Of a stretch of 24,957 nucleotides of DNA, positions 3,001 through 6,000 are shown piece after piece. Made by a program: the position numbers. Source of the stretch: a virus (taxonomy: Duplodnaviria > Heunggongvirae > Uroviricota > Caudoviricetes); the IMG/VR virus record IMGVR_UViG_2711768002_000002; one strand, given 5' to 3'. Within the stretch, counting starts at the first letter, position 1. Every line of letters starts with the position of its first letter.

Positions 3001-6000
3001 TTTCCCGTTAGCCAGGTCATACGCGGCCTTAACGGCTTTTGGCGTTGCCGCCAGCGTTTCAGACGTGCTATTANNNNNNNNNNNNNNNNNNNNNNNNNNN
3101 NNNNNNNNNNNNNNNNNNNNNNNNNNNNNNNNNNNNNNNNNNNNNNNNNNNNNNNNNNNNNNNNNNNNNNNNNNNNNNNNNNNNNNNNNNNNNNTGACGC
3201 CTGTCTGGTCGCCTCATCTTTTGAAGCAGACGCCGATGATGCCGATGACGCCGCCGAACTGGCGGACGATGCGGCAGCCGTTTTTGAGGATTCTGCACGG
3301 GTTTCCGACGCTTTCGCGTTCGTTTCGGATGTCTTCGCTGCGGAAGCTGACCTCGCTGCTGCCGTGGCCTGCTCAGTGGCTTCGCCAGCCTTCGTTGTGG
3401 CTGTTGAAGCGGATGATGCGGCGCTTTCTGCCGATTTTCCGGCGGCGGTGGCACTGGCTGAGGCCTGCCCGGCACTTGTTGACGCGGCGCTGGCAGACGA
3501 CGCAGCCGCTGTTTTTGAGCCTGCCGCAGCTGAGGCACTCTGTCCCGCTGCCGTTTCAGAAGACCTGGCGTTCGTCTCGGACGTTTTGGCCGCCTTCGCA
3601 GAATTTGCAGCCGCCGTCGCCGAGGAAGCTGCGCTACTGGCGCTTGATGATGCGTTCGTTTCTGATGATTTTGCCGCCTCTTTTGAAGCCGACGCATCCC
3701 GGGCTGAGGTGGCAGCTTCTGACGCTTTCGTGGTCGCGGTGGATGCAGAAGTGGCTGCTGATTGTTGTGACGCTGCCGCATTCGTTTCTAACGTTTTCGC
3801 CGCACCGGCACTGGTAGCCGCCGCGCTTTTTGAGGACTCTGCAGCGGCAGCACTTTTTGAGGCTTCAGTGGCCTTTGTTGATGCCGTTCCTGCGCTGGAA
3901 GACGCTGACTGAGCCGACGAAGCGGCCTGTCCGGCTGACGTGCTGGCTGCACGTGCTGAATCTGCAGCATCAGTCGCATGGGTTGCCGCCTCACGGGCTG
4001 ATGTGCTGGCATCGCTGGCTGATTTCTTCGCGGCTGCCGTGTTCTGTGCCACCGCGGACGCGTTACGCGCCACCTCTTCCACCATCAGTTCAAAGCGGCG
4101 CAGTGCCTCAGGACGGGCATCATCCTCCGTCATGGCACCGAGAAAATCATTCAGCGTACCGGGTCGGGAATCTTCATACACGGTGATGGTCCCGGCATGT
4201 GACGGCGGGAATCCTTCCACCAACAGAATAACGCTGTACTGACCGTACTCAACGTCCATGCTGTAACGCCCGGCTTCATCCGGATTTTCTGAGGCCAGCG
4301 TGTTCACCACCACCGTGGTGCTGTTACGTTTTGCTTTCAGCTGGATTGTGCAGTTCTGTACCGGTTTTCCTGTGCCGTCTTTCAGTACACCTGAAATCTT
4401 TACTGCCATATTCACCCCACAAAAAAGCCCGCCTGAACCGGCGGGCTGTCATAACACTGTGTTACCTGGCTAATCAGAATTTATAACCGACACCCACGAT
4501 GAAACCGTCAGTGCGCCAGAGACGTGTTGCTGTGGCGACCGTCATCACTTCCGGTCAGCACATCGTGCGTTTTCCCCTTATTGTCAGTTACGCGGATATA
4601 ATCCCCGGAAAAAGTCGACACACGGCTGTAAGCCACACCCGCCATCGCATACGCGCTGAACCATTCATTCACGCGCACAGACGGCCCCGCCATTACGCTG
4701 AACCAGCGGTTACGAACGGAATCTTCATGCCAGCGGGTATCGCTGTAACGGGTCAGCTGGCGATTCTTGTCTCCTGCATAGCTGAATGACGTCACCAGCC
4801 CCAGCGTATCCGTAAACTCATAACGGTATTTCACGTTAATCCCGTTCAGATCATCACTGCCGGGAACGTTGGTCCGGGCATGAAGATACCCCGCGCTCAG
4901 CGTGGACTGATGTTCAGACGCCCATGCAGGCGCACCGGATACGGCCAGGCAAATGGCTGCGGACAAAATGGCTGCACAAACTTTACGCATAATTACCTCT
5001 CGCTTTTCTGCAATAAAAAAGGCGTCATTCCTGACGCCATTTATTGGGGTTATAAATATTTCAACGAATACTGATGCCGGAAGCCGCTTTTTTGGTCACA
5101 ATCACCGTACAGTCGGTGATATTGCCTGCCCCCTGATTGCCTTTCTGGAAAATCTTAAACTCCAGAGTGACGCTACCACCACCACTAGGCATATCAATAA
5201 CTGCACTGTAACTACCGGGAATGGCACCTTTAGTTTCTCTGGATGCGATTAATACGCCGTTTTTGCGAACTTCAAAACCATAACCCGTGTATCGCGTGCC
5301 TCCTGGGTTATTTCCGCTCCCCGGATCGTCATACGCTATACCGTTAAAAATAATGGGCGGAATAATAATCTGGCGGTCAAAGTTATGATCATCGCTTATG
5401 GTGACTGTAACCGTCCCGTTTGGTGTTTCCGTGTTACCCCACGTACCAGCCTGTTTCGGAAATGATTTGGATACAGCTTTAACGAAGTCACCTCTGACCT
5501 GAGTCGCCTCCAGCATGCCCTTAATCGTACAGTTTTCATTTACCGTGACATTGTTGAGCGTCCCGGCGTTCGCATTCACACTGCCACTGATATCCGCATT
5601 TTTAGCGGTCAGCTTTCCGTCCGGAGTCAGGGAAAATGCCGATGGATTTCCACCGCTGGTAATGGTGGGGGCCGTCAGGCGTTTCAGGAACACGTCGTTC
5701 ATGAATATCTGATCGCCCTGACCAACAAACATCGGTTTTGTGTTGCCATTCGCAGGATTAACCATCGCAATCCTGTCCGCCGCCAGCAGCACCTGACTCT
5801 GCATGCCGTCAGGGGTGTTCTCAATACCGGCACCAATACCCGCGATATAAAGGCGTCCGTCCTGCATCTGCTGCAGCTTCACAGCCCACATGCTGTTCAG
5901 GTTATTATTTGTATCAACCTGAACCTTCTGTATCTGCTGAATTGCCGCACTCTGGTCTTCCAGTTTCTTATTGACGGTCTGCGTGATTTCATTGCTGACA

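Follow-up and report, generated by a model that had tools for sequence, protein, structure and literature searches.

The prophage late region and its tail gene cluster

The stretch of DNA analysed here (the window; 24,957 bases) comprises the whole of contig CWVF01000062.1 from the draft Shigella sonnei assembly GCA_001253535.1, and bears the late region of a lambda-like prophage on its minus strand. Read from high to low coordinates, the genes are arranged as Nu1, A, the head genes, V, G/T, H, M, L, K, I, J, lom, stf and tfa, an order of tail genes like that of phages lambda and 434. The called genes and Pfam matches place J, the subject of this study, inside the cluster of H, M, L, K, I, J, lom, stf and tfa, which is the genomic position of a TipJ protein. 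Three runs of N (3074-3194, 9328-9760 and 10088-10207) interrupt the window, and their simplest reading is that they are scaffold gaps of the draft assembly. The first of these falls within the side tail fibre gene (2961-4415 and 1414-2697, minus strand), in the product of which a long low-complexity stretch rich in Ala, Ser and Thr comes after a prophage tail-fibre N-terminal domain. In complete S. sonnei genomes, the side tail fibre is a single ORF of 1027 aa, followed by a tail fibre assembly gene of 193 aa, and IS1 genes are found after tfa. Both ends of the contig are low in GC (0.36-0.45; positions 1-1000 and 23500-24957), and an ORF of the DUF1398 family lies past Nu1 (24275-24700, plus strand).

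Between J and lom lies a terminator-like hairpin (Table 1), which reads GGCGTC AGGAAT GACGCC before its T-run, and the annotation of phage 434 bears a terminator at the matching place. The version found in 434 and in the prophage of Escherichia coli MB56 reads GGCACC ... GGTGCC, so that the stem differs by two compensatory changes and pairing is kept. The adjacent lom gene has lost 83 bp at the junction 4519/4520, between CTGGCG repeats in the alignment, and its product covers only positions 1-159 of the 199 in the Pfam Ail_Lom profile. An identical 160-aa Lom product is encoded on 861 contigs, complete S. sonnei chromosomes among them, and this lesion is therefore both real and widespread in S. 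sonnei. A further terminator-like hairpin is located 3' of lom (4426-4447).

Table 1. Features of the J locus and its neighbours in the window, with nucleotide identity of the distal blocks of J to three relatives.
Feature	Coordinates	Strand	Basis or remark	Identity to lambda (%)	Identity to 434 (%)	Identity to MB56 (%)
H	10698-13259	-	called gene / Pfam			
I	8479-9150	-	called gene / Pfam			
J	5061-8418	-	start codon at 8418, stop codon 5061-5063			
N-terminal part of J, lambda-like	7522-8418	-	lambda J residues 1-302			
Junction of 140-bp frameshifting deletion, surviving direct-repeat copy GCGCTGTATG	7512-7521	-	DNA alignments			
Lambda-like hub and FNIII part of J, 3' of the deletion	6151-7511	-	Pfam Phage-tail_3, Ig_J, Ig_J_second			
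FNIII-2 part	6151-6633	-	block alignment	96.1	96.1	99.2
Middle module	5701-6150	-	block alignment	52.7	53.1	100 (450/450)
Conserved junction, lower central straight fibre	5556-5700	-	block alignment	94.5	91.0	99.3
Receptor-binding domain (RBD), 434 type	5061-5555	-	block alignment	49.9	94.7	96.6
Terminator-like hairpin and T-run, between J and lom	5021-5038	-	scan match, 7-bp stem			
lom	4508-4990	-	cut to 160 aa by 83-bp deletion			

Integrity of the J gene

On this contig, J is divided between two ORFs of 319 aa (7459-8418) and 834 aa (5061-7565, minus strand), and the initial annotation was right to treat it as broken. Six Pfam families, each above its curated cut-off, are found in order over the two fragments, namely FNIII-A_GpJ, Phage-tail_3, Ig_J, Ig_J_second, Phage_Tail_Tip and Ig_GpJ_C, and this is the domain order of TipJ proteins. 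The N-terminal fragment matches FNIII-A_GpJ (E=1e-42) and is identical to lambda J at 299 of 315 positions by BLASTP, the last 13 aligned residues belonging to an out-of-frame tail. The C-terminal fragment aligns from lambda J residue 347 onward, and lambda residues ~303-346 are absent. Comparisons with lambda, 434, MB56 and S. sonnei 53G attribute the break to a clean deletion of 140 bp between two 10-bp copies of GCGCTGTATG; the sequence across the junction consists of GACAAATGG, GCGCTGTATG and CCGGTATGG, in that order. The uninterrupted frame of ~1130-1165 aa is thus lost to this deletion, owing to which the gene as assembled is unable to make a tail tip. It is a TipJ member by descent and, as assembled, a pseudogene.

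The state of J in S. sonnei at large is another matter. In S. sonnei 53G (HE616528.1) and other complete genomes, the J gene beside lom is an intact ORF of 1165 aa, and window positions 5061-7299 are identical to the 53G gene at all 2239 nucleotides. The differences are confined to the N-terminal 1.1 kb, where seven SNPs accompany the 140-bp deletion and three of them lie near its junction. Among the matches listed for complete E. coli genomes, the junction query is split into two segments separated by 140 bp, which shows that these genomes are without the deletion, and its junction was not found in them; a 40-mer spanning the junction had no match among the GTDB species representatives, and no database record was found for the product of the 834-aa ORF. 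Database records of the 319-aa N-terminal fragment are limited to contig CWVF01000062.1, which implies that the deletion is either private to this isolate or an artefact of assembling short reads from a genome that has several paralogues of J.

Degraded J sequences of another kind are present in public genomes, where short ORFs fuse the last ~50-60 aa of the J receptor domain to the N-termini of other tail proteins, including Stf (in S. sonnei), the tape-measure protein H and the tail protein I (P0083, P0084, P0085). These ORFs look to have arisen where degraded lambdoid prophages lost large internal segments.

Modular composition of distal J

The distal 1.6 kb of J was aligned with its counterparts in lambda, 434 and the MB56 prophage, and identity was computed for each block (Table 1). 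The initial annotation had described J as lambda-like outside a distal region and a second, mid-protein patch, and this holds for the body of the protein. The FNIII-2 part retains 96.1% nucleotide identity to lambda, and residues 16-495 of the C-terminal ORF are near-identical to lambda J residues 347-826 in the protein alignment. The distal region had been delimited at 5061-5580, most of which is indeed divergent; the first ~25 nt of that interval (5556-5580) still belong to a conserved junction, and divergence from lambda begins only at ~5555-5530. This junction of 145 bp, extending to 5700, sits between two variable modules.

The mid-protein patch, placed originally at ~5880-6070, is likewise real, at 52.7% nucleotide identity to lambda, but its extent was understated. 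Its strict span is 5736-6109, with shoulders that reach 5701-6150, and it features a net insertion of 84 nt (28 aa) relative to lambda and 434. The module is located between the Pfam domains Ig_J_second (FNIII-2; ORF residues 387-487) and Phage_Tail_Tip (541-669), and aligns with lambda J from residue ~823 on. In lambda J, the order of domains at this point is an alpha-helical shaft (AHS) followed by the top of the central straight fibre (CSF), a beta-prism, and residues 841-861 comprise AHS helices that are turned to beta-sheet upon receptor binding (PMC11101478). The sequence alignment identifies the middle module as an alternative version of the alpha-helical shaft and upper fibre, 28 aa longer than those of lambda and 434. 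It is a common module: phi458, vB_EcoS-640R1 and PhiR70_1 each match its core (5850-6100; 251 nt) at 100%, 65 phage records reach 90% identity or more over it, and many prophages have an identical version. Since this module belongs to the shaft and upper fibre, outside the domain that contacts the receptor, it is evidence of mosaicism and not of receptor choice, although it may possibly bear on fibre length or on the mechanics of the trigger.

Base composition follows the same partition. The GC content is 0.469 in the RBD module, 0.572 in the junction, 0.599 in the body and 0.570 in the N-terminal part; the corresponding RBD regions of lambda and 434 are at 0.542 and 0.477, respectively. The lower value of the RBD module in the window (0.469 vs 0.57-0.60) fits a separate history for this part of the gene, and we infer that the conserved junction and the FNIII region serve as homologous joints for the swapping of shaft and receptor modules.

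A divergent allele of the lambda receptor-binding domain

The final ~170 aa of J had been reported as failing to match the LamB-binding domain of lambda. Divergence there is considerable, at 49.9% nucleotide and ~40% amino acid identity over the final ~165 codons, but the stronger sense of that statement, that the two regions are unrelated, does not hold. An alignment to lambda J is obtained over the last 172 aa (E=1e-37), in which 40% of residues agree and indels occur at four sites, and the distal domain matches Pfam PF12421, Ig_GpJ_C, the family of the 'Tip attachment protein J, C-terminal receptor binding domain' (E=9e-27). Matches to the distal part of J among PDB sequences include A8 gpJ713 and lambda gpJ. 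The domain was also modelled with AlphaFold2 as a monomer from an alignment of 19 natural alleles, which gave an all-beta model of moderate confidence (mean pLDDT of 78). This predicted structure resembles the lambda gpJ RBD in its closed (8xck) and LamB-bound (8xcj) forms, along with the A8 gpJ RBD in its free (9wca) and OmpC-bound (9wcb) forms, with TM scores of 0.71-0.73 and E values of ~1e-14 to 7e-14 across the four, and thereby exhibits the Ig-like beta-sandwich fold of gpJ RBDs. The shared Pfam family, fold and alignment rule out an origin unrelated to lambda J, and together indicate that the RBD encoded in the window is a divergent allele of the lambda domain.

The manner in which this allele departs from lambda is informative. 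Residues 960-1132 of J were delineated by Maddamsetti et al. (2018; PMC6646904) as an independently recombining 'specificity region', within which lineage-defining indels were located at 1012, 1048-49, 1077-78 and 1107 across 1,207 natural J homologues. Relative to lambda J, the window product bears insertions of 2 aa at ~1011/1012, 6 aa at ~1043-1049 and 1 aa at ~1078, with a further +2 / -6 aa around 1099-1114, and these sites coincide with the four lineage-defining ones. High identity to lambda at the C-terminus would have countered the proposal of a distinct receptor; instead, the 960-1132 region agrees at 40% of amino acids and is in a different indel state, and is not of the lambda, LamB-binding type. 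Given that the RBD is not the lambda allele and differs from it at the indel sites associated with specificity, a receptor other than LamB is well supported by the sequence comparison.

The phage 434 allele and its probable receptor

A search of the distal region against phage records yielded a close match to J of phage 434 (OL657226.1, UMO75286.1). From the motif NENCTIKG to the C-terminus, 151 of 159 residues (95.0%) are identical and no gaps are present, so that the two RBDs are near-identical from end to end and agree in indel state, and the window RBD is a 434-type allele. It is far from rare: with the 520-nt distal query, 76 phage records are recovered at 90% nucleotide identity or more, including 434 (94.4%), cdtI, 2851, recent lambdoid coliphage isolates and several Stx1a-, Stx2a- and Stx2c-converting phages. 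The receptor of 434 is OmpC, and lambda furnished with the 434 J gene switches from LamB to OmpC (PMC3509688, PMC11101478). A 2025 paper describes the domains of 434, lambda and phi330 as homologues of 35-40% identity, and OmpC as the receptor of both 434 and phi330 (PMC12502783). The near-identity to 434 and the use of OmpC by that phage make OmpC the best-supported receptor of the window RBD, and this is likely the porin that an intact copy of this J would recognize. The original suggestion that mosaicism implies a receptor different from that of lambda is consequently upheld for the RBD, where the match to the 434 allele points to OmpC, but not for the middle patch.

The complete set of J modules recurs in phi458, a siphovirus spontaneously induced from avian pathogenic E. 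coli that forms plaques on the K-12 strain MC1061 (PMC9701743); the receptor of phi458 is not given in that paper. Its J protein (OP434518.1, UYE91775.1), which equals that of S. sonnei 53G in length at 1165 aa, bears the full mosaic of the window J, with 802 of 819 residues identical and no gaps, and the RBDs differ by five substitutions. The whole J gene is also found at ~96% nucleotide identity in ev099, Ayreon, cdtI, PhiR34_1 and other phages. Phage 434 shares with the window its RBD, lambda-like hub and FNIII body, C-terminal ending and the gene order I-J-terminator-lom-stf, but its shaft and upper fibre are only 53% identical at the nucleotide level and 28 aa shorter, its RBD differs by eight substitutions and it lacks the 140-bp deletion. 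Lambda gpJ (NP_040600.1; 8XCJ, 8XCK, 8IYK), which binds LamB, is similar in architecture, fold, body and junction, and is set apart by its RBD (~40% amino acid identity, with indels at ~1012, ~1048, ~1078 and ~1107) and by a shaft that is 28 aa shorter. The A8 gpJ chimera (9WCA; 9WCB with OmpC), for which OmpC is the proven receptor, shares the Ig-like RBD fold and is the best PDB sequence match to the J product of the window (E=2e-97 over the distal 320 aa), yet its RBD is a different allele, with ~45% identity in the fold alignment and loops of differing length.

Mosaic tail tip, retargeted loops or decay

These comparisons establish where the modules begin and end, their homology, the family and fold of the RBD, and the near-identity to 434 and phi458. 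J of the window is most readily explained as an ordinary mosaic lambdoid central tail fibre bearing a 434-allele tip that most likely docks on OmpC rather than LamB, a reading in which we place considerable confidence. The protein would be an assembly of exchangeable modules: a lambda-like hub and FNIII body, a longer shaft and upper fibre, a conserved junction and an Ig-like RBD of the 434 allele. In the lambda-type tip, loops from three gpJ C-terminal domains enter a trimeric porin; on binding, the domains spread apart and a twist is propagated that opens the tail tip (PMC11101478). In an intact J, three copies of the RBD would similarly make up the tip of the fibre and attach to a trimeric porin of the outer membrane, in all likelihood OmpC, as in the case of 434; by analogy with lambda on LamB and A8 on OmpC, this binding would trigger a rearrangement of the fibre that opens the tail. 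As the 434 version of the tip is well known and binds OmpC, its presence here speaks of ordinary module swapping between related phages.

A more particular specificity has some basis in the distribution of the eight substitutions relative to 434, which cluster in two loop-like segments (intact-J residues 1032-1047 and 1136-1143). These are the most variable and indel-rich parts of the allele alignment and line up with the lambda hot spots at ~1012 and ~1107. The natural gpJ alleles A8 and 1A2 tell OmpC variants apart (PMC11338833), single J mutations in phage 21 can add the use of OmpC or OmpF (PMC11336670), and from one to a few substitutions in J alter the receptor used by lambda (PMC6646904). 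This clustering, the allele-level discrimination of OmpC and the ease of porin shifts mean that the fine specificity could differ from that of 434, in which case the 434-type fold would be retained while loop substitutions retarget it to an OmpC variant, for example that of S. sonnei and not of K-12, or to a different porin, for instance OmpF. We regard this as improbable overall, because the RBD is 95% identical to 434 with no indels, natural lineages of different specificity differ by indels, and phi458, in which the first loop segment is identical, plaques on a K-12 strain. There is a small chance that the S. sonnei allele, which departs from 434 and phi458 at a few positions concentrated in these two putative receptor-contact loops, is tuned to the S. 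sonnei variant of OmpC or to another porin. For the phages with the closest RBDs (the PhiR, mEp and ev series), no relevant paper with receptor data was found, and a receptor-prediction preprint from 2026 covers GpJ of Drexlerviridae and does not include the window allele. Alternatively, distal J might be the functionless remnant of a pseudogene that has diverged under relaxed constraint in a cryptic prophage, for which the frameshifting deletion in J, the 83-bp deletion in lom and the many truncated or fused J fragments in Shigella and E. coli databases could be cited. Decay of this kind would not be expected to leave the divergent blocks 95-100% identical in many viable phages with their reading frames open, nor the distal 2239 nt identical to the intact gene of complete S. 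sonnei genomes; the J deletion itself occurs on one draft contig, flanked by SNPs, and may be strain-private or artefactual. The carriage of identical or near-identical blocks by viable phages led us to reject decay as the source of the divergence, and we consider it very improbable indeed.

Significance for lambdoid tail tips

Published work already covers the modular nature of the specificity region, the OmpC-using allele of 434 and the structures of gpJ bound to LamB and to OmpC, and the finding is in that sense already known. For annotation, the tail tip of this prophage should be labelled '434-type, probably OmpC-binding' and not 'lambda-like, LamB'; beyond this, its significance is slight. 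Lambda-derived delivery particles are now being redirected to OmpC by means of natural gpJ alleles (PMC11338833), and for particle engineering the window allele and its loop variants represent one more entry in a large catalogue; there is a small chance that the S. sonnei allele could be used ready-made to direct engineered lambda particles to Shigella. Because J is intact in complete S. sonnei genomes, there is likewise a small chance that it still equips an inducible phage. J of the window is also a clean example of the known J modules, namely the body, the shaft, the conserved joint and the specificity region.
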